19,034 nt of DNA from a virus (lineage: Duplodnaviria; Heunggongvirae; Uroviricota; Caudoviricetes): the IMG/VR virus record IMGVR_UViG_2740892047_000005, one strand, 5' to 3'. Position numbers and translations under genes: made by a program. Positions within the stretch are counted from its first letter, which is position 1; each line of letters starts with the position of its first letter. The notes under the pieces were generated by a model. The model did no database searches. It had not been told where the DNA came from and worked only from the letters and a program-made list of their open reading frames with translations. Of this stretch, positions 1,069 to 11,523 are shown piece by piece.

Positions 1069-1336
1069 AAAAACTCCTGCCCGTAAGCTGGGCTGCTGAA
1101 CAAATGAGGGGTTGCGCAGTATCTGGCGGTGGATGGCCGCCGGTTGTCATAACTAAGCCGCCTCGTTGAAGCGACTAAGGTATGAAATGTTGAGTTGATT
1201 TCAGCTGGTCACACCGACGTTCACGCGTCCGTTTCATCCCTCGCACTCCCCGAAGCCTGCTGAAATTCAAGCTGCGGATCTAAGCGGTCATCGCAACGGT
1301 GAATCAGGTGGTTGCCGTATCGTTGCGTTGTTGCGA

Positions 1337-1385
1337 TATGGTGATAATAGCTATTGCTATTGGTGATATCAATACTTATTGCTAT
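1337..1385 (-). promoter_or_regulatory. Candidate pL promoter with two operators (OL1 1347-1360, OL2 1372-1385)
   Basis: On the minus strand: -35 TTGATA (plus 1367-1372), 17-bp spacer, -10 TATTAT (plus 1344-1349). Two 14-bp sites, ATAGCTATTGCTAT (1347-1360, near-palindrome ATAGC-N4-GCTAT) and ATACTTATTGCTAT (1372-1385), are 25 bp apart and share the motif of the OR sites. Seen directly in sequence; function is inferred. Confidence 0.45.
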
Positions 1386-1510
1386 TAGTTGATGTGTTTT
1401 GATATTAAATGTTTGATAGCAAAAAGAATTAATTTTGTGACTTGAATCGCATAGCGATAACTGAAGTGAGGTGTGGTGGTTTTTTGGACGGTATGAGTTA
1501 TGAGGGGGAG

Positions 1511-1546: not shown

Positions 1547-1927
1547 TCAGTCAGCCCAACCTGATTTCGAGTTTATTTGGGTTTCTGACATTGTGTATTT
1601 CTTAATCGTGTCATCGTCAAAAAGAATAGTAAGTTCTTTTTTCGTACCGTTCGTTCCATTATGGAATAATCCATAGAATGGAATAAAAGTGGTGCCATTA
1701 ACTTTTACTTTTGCAAAGGCGTACTTCCAGATCTCGTTTCCACTGTCAGTATATGAAACAGCATCAGGAGAACCAAAGTAAGATTTAACCTCATTCTTGG
1801 TTGTTTTACCTTCCTGAAGTTTAGACTGGACACTAATTTCAGTTTCATTTTTGAGTTGCTGGTTGCCTGAAGAAGCACACCCAGCCAATAGAGATGCCAT
1901 CATGGCAGCGATTAGGATTTTTCTCAT
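1547..1927 (-). CDS. Lipoprotein (126 aa) with signal peptide and lipobox LLAGC; AT-rich moron between OL and cI (rexAB position)
   Basis: N-terminus MRKILIAAMMASLLAGC has a signal peptidase II lipobox. The mature part is S/T/N/K-rich and reminiscent of small BamE/OmlA-like lipoproteins (not verified). Lies 229 bp downstream of cI on the same strand, with a terminator after it. Confidence 0.8.
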   Translation of the reverse strand: MRKILIAAMMASLLAGCASSGNQQLKNETEISVQSKLQEGKTTKNEVKSYFGSPDAVSYTDSGNEIWKYAFAKVKVNGTTFIPFYGLFHNGTNGTKKELTILFDDDTIKKYTMSETQINSKSGWAD

Positions 1928-2156: not shown

Positions 2157-2849
2157 TTAACCATGCTTCCTGTACGTCTGCGGCATGCTTCCAATGACCT
2201 TACCGAATATGAACACCCGGTTCATCTCGTCTTTCTCGATCGGGTCCCACGGCGAGTAGCTCTTGTTATCAGAGATAACCAGCAGCTTATCCTTCATCAT
2301 TTGAAGACGTTTTACATGGGCAGTGTCGTCGTACAGAAACGCATAGATGCCATCACCGTCGAAAGATTTAACAGTGATATCAACGAACAGCAGGTCACCT
2401 GGTTCGATCGTCCCTGACATGCTGTCACCGCGCACGTTAATAATGCGGATATTTTCCGCCTTCCTGCCATCGAACATGTGACGAGCATCGTCAAACGAGT
2501 ACTCAACCGAGCGTAGAACTTCCACAAACTCACGGTTGATGACACCCGGTCCGGCACTGACTTCTATATCAAGAACGTCAATCTTGAAGTATTTTGAATG
2601 GCTGACAGCAGGCTTCCCTGATTGTTGACCGTCATTTCTCATCGGGCCTATGCCTGATGAGAGCCATTCTGTTCGAACACCCAATGCATTAGCTATTTCA
2701 ACAATTTTTGTTGAGCCGCGCGCGTTGCCGCTTGTCAGTCTCCAGATTGTGGGTTGAGCTACGCCAGACGCCTTTGCAAGAGCGCCTTGAGACATTCCAG
2801 ATTGTTCCATCGCTAGGTTTAAGCGATCAGCAAGAGTTTCTTTTTTCAT
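2157..2849 (-). CDS. cI: CI-type prophage repressor (N-terminal HTH + C-terminal S24/LexA-like autopeptidase), 230 aa
   Basis: HTH segment SQGALAKASGVAQPTIWRL. S24 motifs: Ala-Gly cleavage-site-like VSAGPG, catalytic Ser in RGDSMSG, Lys in HVKRL. Start set at ATG 2849 (MKKETLADRL...) because the upstream ATG at 2885 lies inside the operator array. The PRM-like promoter implies a near-leaderless mRNA, as for lambda cI. Confidence 0.88.
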   Translation of the reverse strand: MKKETLADRLNLAMEQSGMSQGALAKASGVAQPTIWRLTSGNARGSTKIVEIANALGVRTEWLSSGIGPMRNDGQQSGKPAVSHSKYFKIDVLDIEVSAGPGVINREFVEVLRSVEYSFDDARHMFDGRKAENIRIINVRGDSMSGTIEPGDLLFVDITVKSFDGDGIYAFLYDDTAHVKRLQMMKDKLLVISDNKSYSPWDPIEKDEMNRVFIFGKVIGSMPQTYRKHG

Positions 2850-2858
2850 AAGTTTTAA

Positions 2859-2928
2859 TTTATACGCTTGCGTATTGATGGTCAAAACACGTTTTGCTAT
2901 TGCTTGGATTAATACGCATTGCTATTAT
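2859..2928. promoter_or_regulatory. OR region: three 14-bp operators at 25-bp spacing with divergent PRM (to cI) and PR (to cro)
   Basis: OR3 ATACGCTTGCGTAT (2862-2875, perfect palindrome), OR2 ACACGTTTTGCTAT (2887-2900), OR1 ATACGCATTGCTAT (2912-2925). PR: -35 TTGCTT (2900-2905), 17-bp spacer, -10 TATTAT (2923-2928), overlapping OR2 and OR1. PRM on minus: -35 TTGACC (rc of 2880-2885), -10 TATAAA (rc of 2859-2864), overlapping OR3. Confidence 0.55.
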
Positions 2929-2959
2929 TCATTCATTTCAATACCAATAGGAATTGATA

Positions 2960-3187
2960 ATGACAAATCAAACCATTCAACTCGCAATCAGTATTACAGG
3001 TAGTCAAAAACGACTGGCAGATCTATGCGGTGTAGCCCAACCCACAGTTTGGCGTTGGCTACACGGTGGCGGAATTGATGCCCGCTATGTAATGAAAATT
3101 GTCTCAGCCACTGGTGGAAAGATTAAACCAGCAGATATTCGTCCCGACCTCGCACCATTGTTTAACGCGAGTAATTCTGCCGCCTAA
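2960..3187 (+). CDS. cro: Cro-like HTH regulator (YdaS/DUF1019-like), 75 aa
   Basis: ORF track 2954..3187; preferred start is ATG 2960 (MTNQTIQLAISITGSQKRLADLCGVAQPTVWRWL...) with SD TAGGA at 2948-2952. Divergent from cI across the operator array. HTH resembles YdaS-type Cro analogues (from memory). Confidence 0.8.
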   Translation: MTNQTIQLAISITGSQKRLADLCGVAQPTVWRWLHGGGIDARYVMKIVSATGGKIKPADIRPDLAPLFNASNSAA

Positions 3188-3211
3188 ACTGCGGCGTTAA
3201 CTGATAAGGCA

Positions 3212-3757
3212 ATGACTATGCAACCACTTACATACCAACAGACTAGCGGATTTAGCCCGACTGCGGTGATAAATCGTTCTCAAACAAAACAGGCGCCAGG
3301 CCACGAAAAAATCCGTGATGCCGTTCGCGCCTGGTCGGCTGCAGATAATCAGGATGTTGTTGCCGCACTCATTGTGAATGAGTATCGGGAGCAGGGCGGC
3401 GGCACCATCGATTTCCCTGATGATGTCAGCCGTGCACGCCAGAAGCTGTTCCGCTTCCTCGATAACAAATTCGATTCTGAAAAATACCGAAATAACGTGC
3501 GTGAACTGACCCCGGCAATTCTGGCGGTACTACCGCTGGAATATCGCGGCCACCTGGTTGAGCAGGATAGCTACATGGCTCGGCTGGCTGAAATGGAAAA
3601 GGAACTCAGTGAGGCAAAACAGGCTGTCATTCTCAACGCACCACGCCACCAGAAACTGAAGGAGATGAGTGAAGGCATTGTGTCGATGTTTCGTGTGGAC
3701 CCGGATTTGGCTGGTCCACTGATGGCGATGGTCACCACCATGCTGGGGGCAATATGA
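3212..3757 (+). CDS. YdaT-like protein (CII-position regulator of Rac-type immunity regions), 181 aa
   Basis: Segments IVNEYREQGGGTIDFP and RELTPAILAVLPLEYRGHL resemble E. coli Rac YdaT as I recall it. Immediately downstream of the cro-like gene and upstream of O. Confidence 0.75.
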   Translation: MTMQPLTYQQTSGFSPTAVINRSQTKQAPGHEKIRDAVRAWSAADNQDVVAALIVNEYREQGGGTIDFPDDVSRARQKLFRFLDNKFDSEKYRNNVRELTPAILAVLPLEYRGHLVEQDSYMARLAEMEKELSEAKQAVILNAPRHQKLKEMSEGIVSMFRVDPDLAGPLMAMVTTMLGAI

Positions 3758-3843
3758 CAGGTTCGGAAATGGCGAAAGCCGGTCTGCGCGAACAGAACCG
3801 ACTTTCAGGTGCAAATCGTAACACACTCATTGCGGGAGGAATT

Positions 3844-7411: not shown

Positions 7412-8362
7412 CTCTTGGGGAAACACCGTTTTGATACCGTTGCCAGCGAATATAACACTTTAATTAATTACGGTAAGTAACTTATAACAGTCAATAGATG
7501 TAAATAGAGATGGTGTGGAATCATTACTTGATGCTTTGGCACGCTACCGCCACAAACTCGTTGTGGTGAGTCTGTGGTATGTAGTCAAAACATAGATTTG
7601 CTGTTGTAATGTTACACCTGCATGGGTAACAAAATCTAGTGCGATACACATAGCCACTGACCATCTATACTGGTTTAATATACAGCATTTTATGACGATT
7701 CTCAATTATGAAACTAACTATTTTACAACCAGTTATGGATATCTATGCTTTTATGTACTAAAAATTCTTTAGTTACAGATGTATTGATGACGAGAAATTG
7801 CTAAAGCAAGATGAGTAAGGAACTAAATCAATAAAGTGGGGGCGGGGGGAGTTCGAGTGGCTAGGAGCATAGCGCTTGATTACTTTTGGTGGTTGAAAAA
7901 TGTTCGGTTGGGTGTCGCTAGGTGACTAATAGCTAAATTGGGAGATATACATATATAATATGAAATAAATCCCCACTTAATGCTTGTGAAATATTTATGT
8001 GACAAGCGGGTGTTCTTATTGATATTAAAATTCAATAACAGTGAGTTTTTATTCTTTTCTAAGTTTTGTAAATTGTTCTCACAGAGAAGGTTTAATTGTA
8101 TGTGCCTATATTTTTTTCTAGTGAATATAATGTCGGAATATATTAATATTGGCATATTCAGCAATGACTTCAAATATTCTTGATTTTCGATAATCAACTC
8201 GCCATAATCTCGTTGCTGTCGGCCTGAACATCCGGCGGTGGGGTTGCGCTAAACGGGGACGTTTATGCGCACACACAATCCAAACTCTCTTCTCCCTTCA
8301 CAGATGCAGAAATGCACCTGCGATTTTTTGTATTCTGCGTTTTACCTCTACGGAGGTGAAGC

Positions 8363-10425: not shown

Positions 10426-11523
10426 TTAGAACTGGTAAACCAGACCTACAGCAACGATGTCATCAGTGCTTACACCGAGTGCTTTAGTGAAGTCATTTTT
10501 GTCAAGCAGGTTGATTTTGTAATCAACGAAAGTAGACATATTTTTGTTGAAGTAATAGGTTGCACCTACATCAACATATTTGACTAAGTCCTGATCGCCC
10601 CATACTCCAAGATCCTTACCTTTAGATTGCAGGTAAGCAACGGACGGACGCAGACCGAAATCGAACTGATATTGTGCAACAGCTTCGAAGTTTTGAGCTT
10701 TATTAGCAACGAAGTGATCAGCAAATACAGTCATATTCTGGGTTTCAGAATAGGTAGTGGCCAGGTAAATGTTGTTAGCGTCATATTTCAGACCTGCGGC
10801 CCAAACTTCTGCATTTTTACCGGAAGCAAATACTTCAGGAAGAACTTTCCCTGCATTAACTTGAGTGTCGGTACGATCAGATTTTGCATAAGTTGCACCG
10901 ATACCGAATCCTTCGTATTCATAGGTAGCAGAGAAACCGAAGCCATCACCGTTACCTTCGGTGTAGTTATCGAAATCGCTACGATCGTTTTTGCCTTGGT
11001 ACTGAGCAGCAAAGTTCAGACCATCAACCAGGCCAAAGAAGTCGTTGTTACGATAGGTTGCAACACCAGTGGTGCGACCAGTCATGAACACATCTGTTTG
11101 GGTCCAGGTATCGCCACCGAATTCTGGCAGAACGTCAGTCCACGCACCGATGTCGTATGCTACACCGTAGTTACGGCCGTAATCGATGGAGCCGTAGTCA
11201 CCGAATTTCAGGCCAGCGAAGGCAAGACGGGTTTTATCTTTGGAGGAACCTTGAGATTCAGCGCGGTTGCCTTTGAATTCATATTCCCACTGACCGAAAC
11301 CAGTCAGTTGATCGTTGATTTGGGTTTCACCTTTGAAGCCAAGACGGGCATAAGTAGTATCACCATCATCTGCATCATTAGAGGAGAAGTAGTGCTTAGC
11401 ATTAACTTTCCCGTACAGATCCAGCTTGTTACTGTCTTTATTATAAATTTCAGCTGCCTGAGCAGACATCGCCATCAGTACTGATGCAGCTACAGCAGAA
11501 ATTGCCACTGTTAATTTTTTCAT
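10426..11523 (-). CDS. nmpC: Outer-membrane general porin of the OmpC/OmpF/NmpC family, 365 aa, intact
   Basis: Signal peptide [23 protein letters not shown], then [24 protein letters not shown]... and C-terminal ...VAVGLVYQF (terminal Phe typical of beta-barrel OMPs). Convergent to Q, between Q and the lysis cassette, as nmpC is in DLP12. Confidence 0.93.

Follow-up and report, generated by a model that had tools for sequence, protein, structure and literature searches.

The window analysed here (the whole 19,034-nt stretch of virus record IMGVR_UViG_2740892047_000005, Caudoviricetes) contains, between 2 divergent genes, 3 similar 14-nt sequences for which an earlier reading of the DNA had proposed a lambda-like OR1-3 layout with a different operator sequence. 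The question raised by this locus is whether the segment from 2862 to 2925 serves as the right operator (OR) in a lysis/lysogeny switch of the lambda type. From the comparisons described below we consider this assignment very likely, and the features that an OR region predicts at the level of sequence were found, with PR as a promoter read by eye.

Repeated sites between the divergent cI and cro genes

The genes and sites at the center of the analysis are as follows.

2157-2849, minus strand: cI (ATG at 2849), 230 aa, with an HTH_3 domain and an S24 autocleavage domain with an Ala-Gly site; helix QPTIWRL
2862-2875: putative OR3, ATACGCTTGCGTAT, in the PRM spacer, with one base of overlap at the start of the -10
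2887-2900: putative OR2, ACACGTTTTGCTAT, 1 bp from the PRM -35 and abutting the PR -35
2912-2925: putative OR1, ATACGCATTGCTAT, within the PR spacer and extending 3 nt into the -10; equal to the family consensus
2960-3187, plus strand: cro-type gene, 75 aa, YdaS/P22-Cro family (Pfam YdaS, 9.6e-15); recognition helix QPTVWRW
3212-3757, plus strand: YdaT-family gene in the cII position (Pfam YdaT, 2.4e-29)

The 3 14-mers occur as originally described, and the claim of an exact 25-bp spacing held, the starts at 2862, 2887 and 2912 being 25 and 25 bp apart. The site at 2862-2875 had been called a perfect palindrome; its 6-bp arms, ATACGC and GCGTAT, are perfect, but the non-self-complementary TT at its center keeps the site from being strictly so. 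When the 110-bp intergenic region was searched without bias for sets of three equally spaced 14-mers, scored by the number of columns identical in all 3, the best set was exactly the one at position 2862 with spacing 25, in which 8 of 14 columns are identical. This score was reached by 33 of 20,000 mononucleotide shuffles and by 254 of 20,000 first-order Markov simulations; by itself, then, the periodicity of the triplet is significant, not overwhelming.

The strict palindrome ATACGCNNGCGTAT, with up to 3 mismatches allowed, was not enriched (6 matches, 7.05 expected), which rules it out as the family motif, and the near-palindromic OR3 is therefore not the family consensus. Instead, the consensus is asymmetric, ATAC(G/T)CATTGCTAT, or (A)ATAC(G/T)CATTGCTAT(T) when the flanks are included to give 16 bp, and corresponds to the cro-proximal site, OR1 in lambda nomenclature. 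Thus the original observation that the most symmetric site lies nearest cI is accurate, but that site is OR3, an atypical member of the family; the cro-proximal site is indeed imperfect as a palindrome, yet it is the one that equals the consensus and is nearly invariant.

The placement of the sites, flanked by a CI-type repressor gene and a divergent Cro-type gene (YdaS/P22_Cro), agrees with the domain assignments made with Pfam, which for CI were Peptidase_S24 (1.3e-18) and HTH_3 (1.8e-6). The closest PDB relative of the CI DNA-binding domain is the 434 repressor (E 2e-5), with CI Gln32 aligned to 434 Gln28. Compared with HK022 CI, identity is 40% overall and about 50% in the C-terminal domain. 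Xfaso 1 Cro (3bd1) is the nearest match to Cro in the PDB. CI and Cro share the recognition helix QPT(I/V)WR, and the DNA encoding the helices of the 2 proteins forms an inverted repeat (I1, 2742-2765 and 3029-3052). The gene order of the region is gam-kil-PL-cargo-cI-OR-cro-ydaT-O-P.

Candidate promoters and the individual OR sites

The original prediction placed the sites over divergent promoter hexamers. The promoters in question, and a further candidate site, are listed here.

2857-2885, minus strand: PRM candidate, -35 TTGACC (2885-2880), 17-bp spacer, -10 TAAATT (2862-2857); found by promoter scan
2900-2928, plus strand: PR candidate, -35 TTGCTT (2900-2905), 17-bp spacer, -10 TATTAT (2923-2928); read by eye
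2941-2954: candidate OR4, ATACCAATAGGAAT, at about +6 to +19 of the PR transcript and overlapping the cro Shine-Dalgarno sequence

The proposed overlap was thus supported for PRM by the promoter scan, whereas for PR it depends on a promoter read by eye, with a weak though conserved -35. PR is missing from the scan list because its -35 has only 3 of the 6 consensus bases; across genera, its TTG (1.39 bits) and its TATTAT (1.97 bits) are invariant. Both PRM hexamers, and their distance to cI, are conserved in 32 of 33 distinct sequences. The cI ATG lies 7 nt past the PRM -10, so the cI mRNA is expected to be leaderless, and we saw no Shine-Dalgarno sequence for cI.

The 3 sites differ in how they are conserved. 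OR1 is nearly invariant (mean 1.89 bits; 7 distinct 16-mers among 34 loci). In OR3, phylogenetic comparison showed the outer ATA and GTAT to be invariant; the Morganellaceae form is ATAGCCATG(C/A)GTAT, that is, OR1 inverted. OR3 is the predicted site of PRM repression, by Cro first and by CI at high concentration. The invariant part of OR2 is the right half, GCTAT, only, the left half being poorly conserved; because of this, filling of OR2 probably depends on cooperativity.

A second cluster of sites at the candidate PL promoter

A weight matrix built from the three OR sites only was run over both strands of the window, and its best other matches began at 1372, 1416, 1366 and 1347. The top direct repeat of an independent repeat search paired 1338-1387 with 2878-2927 (74% identical over 50 nt). 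The features of this region are the following.

1344-1372, minus strand: PL candidate, -35 TTGATA (1372-1367), 17-bp spacer, -10 TATTAT (1349-1344)
1347-1360: putative OL1, ATAGCTATTGCTAT, in the PL spacer and the first 3 nt of the -10
1366-1385: putative OL2, ATATCAATACTTATTGCTAT, a 20-bp palindrome that covers or abuts the PL -35
1392-1405: putative OLx, ATGTGTTTTGATAT, degenerate in this prophage
1416-1429: putative OL3, ATAGCAAAAAGAAT (minus strand, ATTCTTTTTGCTAT), 69 bp from OL1

The PL candidate, a strong leftward promoter, matched at 10 of 12 positions in the promoter scan and has the same geometry as the PR candidate. OL1 occupies the same position in PL as OR1 does in PR. We assign the cluster at 1347-1429 as OL/PL. 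Within OL2 a 14-bp site can be read in two overlapping registers, one on the minus strand at 1366-1379 (19 bp from OL1) and the other on the plus strand at 1372-1385 (25 bp from OL1), and the sequence leaves it ambiguous which register would be used; the Morganellaceae OL2 keeps the 19-bp register only. We considered whether the 20-bp palindrome ATAGCAAT-N4-ATTGCTAT seen at OL2 might be the true unit. It also fits the flanks of OR1 in some Enterobacter, but does not generally fit OR1 and OR3, and the extra arm of OL2 appears better explained as the PL -35. In Enterobacter bugandensis (L019) and Buttiauxella (L030), OLx takes the form of a perfect palindrome, ATAGCAATTGCTAT, and OL3 is kept at an equal offset in E. 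coli, Klebsiella and Salmonella phages. The left cluster thus comprises four predicted sites.

Since the stretch from PL to kil/gam contained no recognisable N-like gene, a put-like antiterminator RNA downstream of PL seemed worth checking. The region past PL showed no similarity to HK022 or HK639 putL and folded no better than shuffled sequences (z=0.02), and there were no Rfam matches anywhere in the 19-kb window.

The four predicted OL sites bear on whether the right-hand array is a lambda-like triplet at all. It might instead consist of four sites (OR3, OR2, OR1 and OR4), as in CP-933P, or of two autonomous sites, OR1 and OR3, with OR2 as a non-autonomous half-site. The logic would then differ in detail from that of lambda: for example, OR2 might not activate PRM, or extra repression might come from a site over the cro leader. 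The restriction of OR2 conservation to its right half is in keeping with such an array, as is the precedent of CP-933P, in which four equally spaced inverted repeats are bound by PaaR2 and YdaS (PMC8630535). So also is the sequence ATAC-N5-(A)GGAAT, which lies 28-30 bp to the right of OR1 in 33 of 33 sequences, with AATAC at 1.86 bits; candidate OR4 resembles OL3, has a matrix score of 10.1, and pairs with 1367-1386 as inverted repeat I6. On these grounds a fourth OR site at 2941-2954 is probable, but the evidence is weak because its right half is the cro Shine-Dalgarno sequence and could be kept solely as such; this half diverges in the Morganellaceae. As to OR2, a cooperative, activating site would be expected to keep its position, and OR2 does so invariably (25 bp from OR1, 1 bp from the PRM -35). 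We regard a departure from the lambda-like triplet as possible but doubtful.

Conservation and co-variation with the recognition helices

The original prediction called for a motif search across related prophages and required conservation of the motif among phages with orthologous repressors. We observed that the sites are kept together with the repressor helix across about 20 genera, and that the operator is swapped where the helix is swapped (PhiR5_1, HK639). The matrix from the OR sites alone found the OL cluster not only in the window but also in 5 phages and in 28 of 30 prophage loci, from about 20 genera; OR and OL clusters were both present in these enterobacterial phages and loci, which have CI helix QPTIWRL and Cro helix QPTVWRW, and there were few further strong matches within about 3 kb on either side. 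The Cro helix is invariant at all loci with these operators. The OR2-OR1 spacing is 25 bp in 34 of 34 loci, and the OR3-OR2 spacing is 25 bp or, in some genera, 24 bp.

Co-variation was seen most directly in PhiR5_1, whose CI is identical in the linker and C-terminal domain but carries helix QAAIQKI; its OR 14-mers are different (ACAACC..GGTTGT-like). HK639, with helix QPAIQKM, has three copies of ATAACC-N2-GGTTAT. Together with prophage locus L039, these cases showed the operator sequence changing along with the recognition helices of CI and Cro.

A published "evolutionary code" for Cro pairs Gln H1 with A+2, Ser/Thr H3 with G+5 and Lys H6 with C+6 (PMC6649833). Applied here, the code predicts xA..GC, which agrees with the conserved half-site AATAGCAA, in a register that we chose ourselves and with about 1 in 20 such fits expected by chance. 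Two flavours of half-site occur, ATACGC and ATAGCA, for which a single recognition mode offers no obvious explanation. It is conceivable, although we think it unlikely, that flavours A, ATAC(G/T)CA, and B, ATAGCAA, are interchangeable and that the choice between them sets the preference for CI or Cro; flavour B is the one predicted by the Cro code. If so, OR3 (A-A in Enterobacteriaceae) would be selective for Cro and the sites that contain B for CI, in contrast to lambda, where preference goes with slight departures from a single consensus.

The promoters account for part of the conservation, because the half-site TTGCTAT is -35-like and the end of the site overlaps TATTAT. This raises the possibility that the repeats are nothing but reiterated -35-like (TTGCTA) and -10-like (TATTAT) hexamers where three promoters lie crowded together in AT-rich DNA, kept for RNA polymerase: the ends of both OR1 and OL1 overlap TATTAT -10s, OR2 and OL2 adjoin -35 hexamers, and the hexamers are themselves strongly conserved. 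Yet site columns beyond the hexamers remain conserved far above the spacers (1.67 bits, as compared with 0.95 for other intergenic columns, in a footprint of 33 distinct sequences; Mann-Whitney p=4e-8), and RNA polymerase has no base preference in the promoter spacers, which is where the invariant ATAC halves are found. Moreover, OLx and OL3 are upstream of PL and away from any hexamer, and phages with the same promoter layout and another CI helix have different repeats. We consider a purely promoter-based origin of the repeats highly improbable.

That the sites are read by some other regulator, such as the cII-like YdaT or a host factor, is hardly credible: a YdaT-type box (TTGATT-N6-AATCAA) with one mismatch does lie over the cro start at 2954-2971, but this box is unlike the 14-mers and is rejected as their source by a window count at chance level (17, with 15.7 expected), the YdaT of CP-933P binds the ydaS/ydaT junction and not OR (PMC9986795), and the 14-mers change in step with the CI and Cro helices. 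A perfect copy of the box occurs at 8180-8197.

By comparison only, then, the OL set, the promoters, the conservation and the co-variation with the helices strongly support the lambda-like OR assignment.

Proposed operation of the switch

Binding, order of occupancy, cooperativity, PRM activation and looping at this OR would proceed as follows. Dimers of CI, and later of Cro, would read the 14-bp (with flanks, 16-bp) pseudo-symmetric sites, both proteins using the recognition helix QPT(I/V)WR. In the lysogen, CI would occupy OR1 and, cooperatively, the half-consensus OR2, and thereby turn PR off; CI bound at OR2 would be positioned to stimulate PRM and so the putatively leaderless cI. Occupancy of OR3, by Cro after induction or by excess CI, would turn PRM off. 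Both proteins would also act on PL at OL1, OL2, OLx and OL3 (1347-1429), and OL and OR would probably be bridged by looping through the HK022-like C-terminal domain of CI. Induction of the prophage would come about through RecA-stimulated self-cleavage of the S24 domain.

Comparison with known switches

The layout matches that of lambda, as originally proposed: divergent cI and cro, three regularly spaced pseudo-palindromes, a predicted leaderless cI mRNA, a cro-proximal pair of sites that covers the PR candidate and a cI-proximal site inside the PRM candidate, a mirrored putative OL at PL, and a repressor with an S24 self-cleaving domain. The operator sequence (ATAC.CATTGCTAT) is unrelated to that of lambda. 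The sites are 14 or 16 bp long with the axis between base pairs, as opposed to 17 bp in lambda, and their spacing is 25/25 bp, whereas in lambda OR it is 24/23 bp. Other differences from lambda are an all-alpha Cro of the YdaS/P22 type, a YdaT protein in the cII position, four predicted sites in OL and perhaps a fourth in OR.

Among solved structures, the nearest relative of the CI DNA-binding domain comes from phage 434. Phage 434 shares with the present system 14-bp operators in which the outer 3-4 bp are best conserved and the center is variable, a consensus and a non-consensus half in each operator, and a Gln at the first helix position that pairs with A at the outer operator position. The immunity is not that of 434 (ACAA-N6-TTGT, helix QQSIEQL), although the fold is related: here the helix is QPTIWRL, the operators read ATA(C/G)-N6-(C/G)TAT, with outer bases ATA(C/G) in place of ACAA, and Cro is no duplicated CI domain.

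The C-terminal domain of CI is homologous to that of HK022 CI, which binds cooperatively and loops OL to OR (PMC8053113), and the OL sites of HK022 are likewise unevenly spaced. The DNA-binding domain and operators are unrelated to those of HK022. An HK022-type immunity, suggested by the GenBank note for ST104, was rejected, since only the C-terminal domain aligns and the cI-cro intergenic sequence is unrelated; the note itself ("similar to HK022 cI") is valid for the C-terminal domain only.

Like CP-933P of E. coli O157:H7, the present module combines a YdaS-type Cro with a YdaT-type cII equivalent, both assigned here with Pfam; the YdaT of CP-933P is the functional equivalent of CII (PMC9986795). 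CP-933P also has a leaderless repressor gene and equivalents of PR, PRM and PL, and several equally spaced repeats that are bound by both repressors, YdaS taking the PRM side first (PMC8630535). The repeats of CP-933P are 18 bp long (consensus GTTTAGTAA; PMC8630535) and unrelated in sequence to the 14-bp sites described here, and its repressor operon includes a toxin-antitoxin pair, whereas the present repressor has an S24 domain.

Relationship to ST104-type immunity, distribution and significance

The immunity module is the same as that of the Salmonella P22-like phages ST104, BTP1 and SE1. CI is 86% identical to ST104 CI, with the same helix; the DNA-binding domains differ at 7 of 70 positions, none of them in the helix. 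In ST104, OR3 and OR2 are identical to those of the window, OR1 differs at one variable position, and the spacing is equal. "ST104" was listed as a separate, unstudied repressor specificity by Villafane et al. 2008 (PMC2629481). If membership of the ST104 class is taken to require a CI identity of about 90% or more or, failing that, the same recognition helix and operators, the module belongs to it by helix and operators, while its 86% CI identity is below the 92% rule of the same authors (PMC2629481). Cross-immunity with the ST104 type is predicted. As compared with ST104, BTP1 and SE1, there are small changes at OR1 positions 5-6, the cargo gene between OL and cI is a different one, and the module resides in a lambda-like (O/P, Nu1/A) E. 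coli prophage and not in a P22-like podovirus.

Of 5,426 complete E. coli genomes, 719 carried the cI-OR-cro module at an identity of at least 95%. Isolated phages of E. coli and Klebsiella have it as well, as do ST104, SE1 and BTP1 of Salmonella. In the literature searched we found no published description of the operators of this common enterobacterial immunity type and no binding, footprint or expression data for it, and string searches with the 14-mers and the recognition-helix peptides gave nothing relevant.

BTP1 is the prophage of epidemic ST313 and has a record, unexplained level of spontaneous induction. Its CI is identical to that of ST104, and it has changes at the otherwise conserved OR1 position 6, in OL2 (GCTAT to GTTAT) and in OLx. 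As a corollary of the two-flavour reading, and with the same low likelihood, these changes could be operator-down alleles that contribute to the spontaneous induction, for which the operator set would then supply a concrete and testable account.

The locus very probably represents an ordinary lambda-style switch, in which the operator set is newly described and the type of mechanism already known; the general understanding of how lambdoid switches operate is unchanged by it. The operator set may be of use in predicting which prophages are homo-immune, in annotating PR, PRM and PL in hundreds of genomes, and as an orthogonal repressor/operator pair for synthetic circuits.

Results

The window is a lambda-like E. 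coli prophage, with near-identical copies in E. coli chromosomes. The genes that bracket its control regions are as follows.

490-786, gam, followed by a kil-like gene and the PL region
1547-1927, minus strand, BamE-like lipoprotein cargo gene between OL and cI
2157-2849, minus strand, cI, with HTH_3 and Peptidase_S24 domains (Pfam)
2960-3187, cro, of the YdaS/P22-Cro type (Pfam)
3212-3757, YdaT-family gene in the cII position, followed by O and P

P is followed by a Kiwa-like KwaB/membrane pair, NinB, RusA, Q, a porin, lysis genes, Nu1 and A. Segment 5819-7426 (minus strand) encodes a KwaB-family protein (Pfam PF16162, 3e-27) and then a 204-aa hydrophobic ORF that gave no Pfam match; the two probably form a Kiwa (KwaA/KwaB) anti-phage defence pair, placed between replication gene P and ninB. 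The porin gene between Q and the lysis genes (10426-11523, minus strand; Porin_1, 1e-156) is full-length, of the Gram-negative type, and is cargo of the lysogenic-conversion type. For the CP-933P YdaT box, TTGATT-N6-AATCAA, we observed a perfect copy at 8180-8197 and, spanning the cro start codon (2954-2971), a copy with one mismatch, with near-matches in the window totalling the chance level; the YdaT protein of the window may have another specificity than that of CP-933P.

Three 14-mers lie between cI and cro at the positions originally predicted, with start-to-start spacings of 25 and 25 bp.

2862-2875, OR3, cI-proximal, ATACGCTTGCGTAT
2887-2900, OR2, middle, ACACGTTTTGCTAT
2912-2925, OR1, cro-proximal, ATACGCATTGCTAT

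The description of OR3 as a perfect palindrome was slightly overstated: its 6-bp arms are perfect, but the central TT is not self-complementary. Triplets of equally spaced 14-mers were sought without bias across the 110-bp intergenic region and ranked by the number of three-way identical columns. The best triplet began at 2862 with spacing 25 and had 8 of 14 columns identical, a value that only 33 mononucleotide shuffles and 254 first-order Markov simulations reached, out of 20,000 each. From this rarity, the triplet pattern is real and unlikely to be due to chance, although the internal evidence is by itself not overwhelming.

A search of the first 3.3 kb for repeats returned, as its top direct repeat, 1338-1387 versus 2878-2927, and a weight matrix derived from the three OR sites alone found its best other matches across the 19-kb window at 1372(+), 1416(-), 1366(-) and 1347(+). 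These matches overlie a strong leftward promoter, PL, and the candidate promoters of the two regions are as follows.

1372-1344, PL, TTGATA-17-TATTAT (promoter scan)
2885-2857, PRM, leftward ahead of cI, TTGACC-17-TAAATT (promoter scan)
2900-2928, PR, rightward, TTGCTT-17-TATTAT (by eye)

Of the divergent PRM and PR hexamers that the operators were predicted to overlap, the scan recovered those of PRM, whose spacer is filled by OR3, with 1 bp between the end of OR2 and the -35; PR was placed by eye only, being absent from the scan because of its weak -35. OL1 occupies the PL spacer and the first 3 nt of the -10, OR1 is placed identically in PR, and OL2 and OR2 abut the -35 hexamers of PL and PR, respectively. 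Read in the PL direction, OL1 of Klebsiella and Salmonella relatives is ATACTCATTGCTAT, identical to OR1 of phage ST104, which makes OL and OR mirror images of each other, as in lambda. The OL cluster comprises four sites.

1347-1360, OL1
1366-1379 and 1372-1385, OL2, a 20-bp palindrome with two overlapping registers
1392-1405, OLx, degenerate in the window
1416-1429, OL3

The cI ATG lies 7 nt past the PRM -10, an interval in which no Shine-Dalgarno sequence was seen; the cI mRNA is accordingly predicted to be leaderless, as is the case in lambda and CP-933P (PMC8630535). About 270 nt separate PL from the first downstream ORF (1075-1343, minus strand). We recognised no N-like gene in this segment, which had no similarity to putL of HK022 or HK639 and no Rfam match, and folded no better than shuffles.

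The three sites, at the same spacing and with diverged spacers, were found in E. coli phages PhiR30_1, Perceval and 4A7, Klebsiella phage ST11-VIM1phi8.2, and Salmonella phages ST104 and BTP1. When one genome per species was scanned with the N-terminal domain of CI, 30 loci were obtained, from genera including Kluyvera, Citrobacter, Enterobacter, Huaxiibacter, Yokenella, Pluralibacter, Raoultella, Scandinavium, Dryocola, Siccibacter, Buttiauxella, Proteus, Providencia, Morganella, Serratia and Xenorhabdus. By the window-derived matrix, 28 of these loci have an OR triplet directly upstream of cI, its first site at about +12 to +16, accompanied by an OL cluster 0.9-3.2 kb off, past variable cargo genes, and by few other strong matches. 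Loss of the motif beside orthologous repressors had been named as grounds for abandoning the prediction; the motif is instead retained in the related phages and these 28 loci. OR2-OR1 spacing is 25 bp in 34 of 34 loci; OR3 and OR2 are 25 bp apart in most Enterobacteriaceae, but in Buttiauxella, Dryocola, Serratia and Morganellaceae the distance is 24 bp (2 loci were mis-registered by the regular expression used for the tally). When 33 distinct intergenic sequences were aligned, the mean was 1.67 bits for site columns outside promoter hexamers, versus 0.95 bits for other intergenic columns (Mann-Whitney p=4e-8).

The slot between OL and cI, which holds rexAB in lambda, is taken here by the BamE-like gene, with a terminator-like hairpin at 1520-1539. 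Relatives carry BstA (BTP1), a HipA-like pair (PhiR5_1) or a ParA-like gene (the Klebsiella phage) there, and other E. coli carry DUF6414; linkage of OL with cI-OR-cro is kept in all relatives despite the change of cargo.

OR1 equals the family consensus, (A)ATAC(G/T)CATTGCTAT(T), and hardly varies. OR2 keeps only its right half, GCTAT, and OR3 its outer ATA and GTAT, the latter site being the near-palindrome ATACGCTTGCGTAT in Enterobacteriaceae and ATAGCCATG(C/A)GTAT, that is, OR1 inverted, in Morganellaceae. From these patterns, half-sites are of two flavours, A = ATAC(G/T)CA and B = ATAGCAA. Perfect palindromes of each occur in relatives, ATACGCATGCGTAT at OR3 of Siccibacter and ATAGCAATTGCTAT at OLx of Enterobacter bugandensis and Buttiauxella; strict A-A palindromes were not enriched within the window. 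An OL3-like element, ATAC-N5-AGGAAT, lies 28-30 bp to the right of OR1 in 33 of 33 related sequences (2941-2954 in the window, ATACCAATAGGAAT), and may represent a fourth operator, lying over the leader and Shine-Dalgarno sequence of cro. Because that Shine-Dalgarno sequence coincides with the right half of the element, which may be conserved merely as a ribosome-binding site, the element is listed only as a candidate.

The recognition helices of the two regulators are near-identical (CI GVAQPTIWRL, Cro GVAQPTVWRW), a likeness also visible as DNA inverted repeat I1 between cI and cro. Wherever these operators occur, the Cro helix QPTVWRW is invariant, with the sole exception of Pluralibacter (QPTVFRW). 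The CI DNA-binding domain has the 434 repressor as nearest solved structure (E 2e-5), its Gln32 and Gln21 aligning with Gln28 and Gln17 of 434. Gln28 of 434 bonds the outer adenine of the 14-bp operator. For Cro, the nearest solved structure is the all-alpha Xfaso 1 Cro; helix positions numbered after lambda Cro are H1=Gln, H3=Thr and H6=Arg. In the Cro "evolutionary code" (PMC6649833), Ade+2 is matched by Gln H1, Gua+5 by Ser/Thr H3 and Cyt+6 by Lys H6; the prediction from this code, xA..GC, is the B half-site A-A-T-A-G-C-A-A (8-bp half-site, axis between base pairs); this fit counts as supporting evidence only, because the register was of our choosing. Flavour A has the G/C pair at +5/+6 swapped relative to B; speculatively, an arginine could reach guanine on either strand.

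Operator repeats associated with different CI helices.
Window, QPTIWRL, repeats of ATAC.CATTGCTAT type
PhiR5_1, QAAIQKI, ACAACC..GGTTGT-like 14-mers
HK639, QPAIQKM, ATAACC-N2-GGTTAT, three copies
Morganella psychrotolerans locus, QPTIWKL, GTTAT-type sites

The CI of PhiR5_1 (2932-3687 of that locus) is 100% identical to that of the window from the linker to the C-terminus and differs in its recognition helix. Its OR repeats recall the 434 operator, ACAA..TTGT, and its promoter layout is the same as the window's. PhiR5_1 is by these comparisons a natural domain swap. The repeats listed above therefore go with the DNA-binding helix rather than with promoter layout or C-terminal domain. Their change with the CI helix under a constant promoter layout argues against their being merely reiterated -35/-10-like hexamers conserved for RNA polymerase.

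Discussion

We propose that CI dimers would occupy OR1 and, cooperatively, OR2, blocking PR and placing a dimer beside the PRM -35, and that occupation of OR3, by Cro first and by CI at high concentration, would turn PRM off; the same events would take place at OL/PL. The CI C-terminal domain is ~50% identical to that of HK022 CI, which binds cooperatively and loops OL to OR (PMC8053113). Given the S24 domain and its Ala-Gly site, prophage induction would be RecA-dependent. In the characterised CP-933P YdaS/YdaT switch, the PRM side is where the Cro equivalent first binds, and PRM is activated by the repressor at low level (PMC8630535), a binding order and activation that support the analogy.

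BTP1 has the highest reported spontaneous induction, by an unexplained mechanism (PMC5322425). We compared BTP1 (3702-3765 and 1600-1690) with ST104, whose CI protein is identical. BTP1 carries C to A at OR3 position 10, a variant also present elsewhere; C to A at OR1 position 6, which is C in 31 of 34 loci; GTTAT in place of GCTAT in OL2, where nearly all other loci have GCTAT or GATAT; and an altered predicted OLx. Weakening of these predicted operators (operator-down alleles) is a testable explanation for the spontaneous induction.

The operator sequence differs from that of lambda, as originally proposed, and also from those of 434, P22, HK022 and CP-933P, and on these sequence differences the module is of none of those immunity types. 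The same immunity module is carried by ST104, SE1 and BTP1. "ST104" was listed as a separate, unstudied repressor specificity by Villafane et al. 2008 (PMC2629481), and BTP1 was described without operator analysis by Owen et al. 2017 (PMC5322425); a string search of the accessible literature library with the 14-mers and recognition-helix peptides returned no matching paper. The module is present at at least 95% identity in 719 of 5,426 complete E. coli genomes.

In HK639 (cI-cro intergenic region) and the Morganella psychrotolerans locus, related 434-like CI domains occur with parallel 14-bp operator triplets. Outer operator bases follow the helix, being ATAACC..GGTTAT with QPAIQKM, ACAACC..GGTTGT with QAAIQKI, ATA(C/G)... 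with QPTIWRL and ...GTTAT with QPTIWKL; at position 2 of helix and operator, for example, T accompanies Pro, and C accompanies Gln or Ala. The operator set is a correct and useful annotation that holds no surprise for the specialist, and the helix/operator pairs of the 434-like CI domains are raw material for a CI recognition code.
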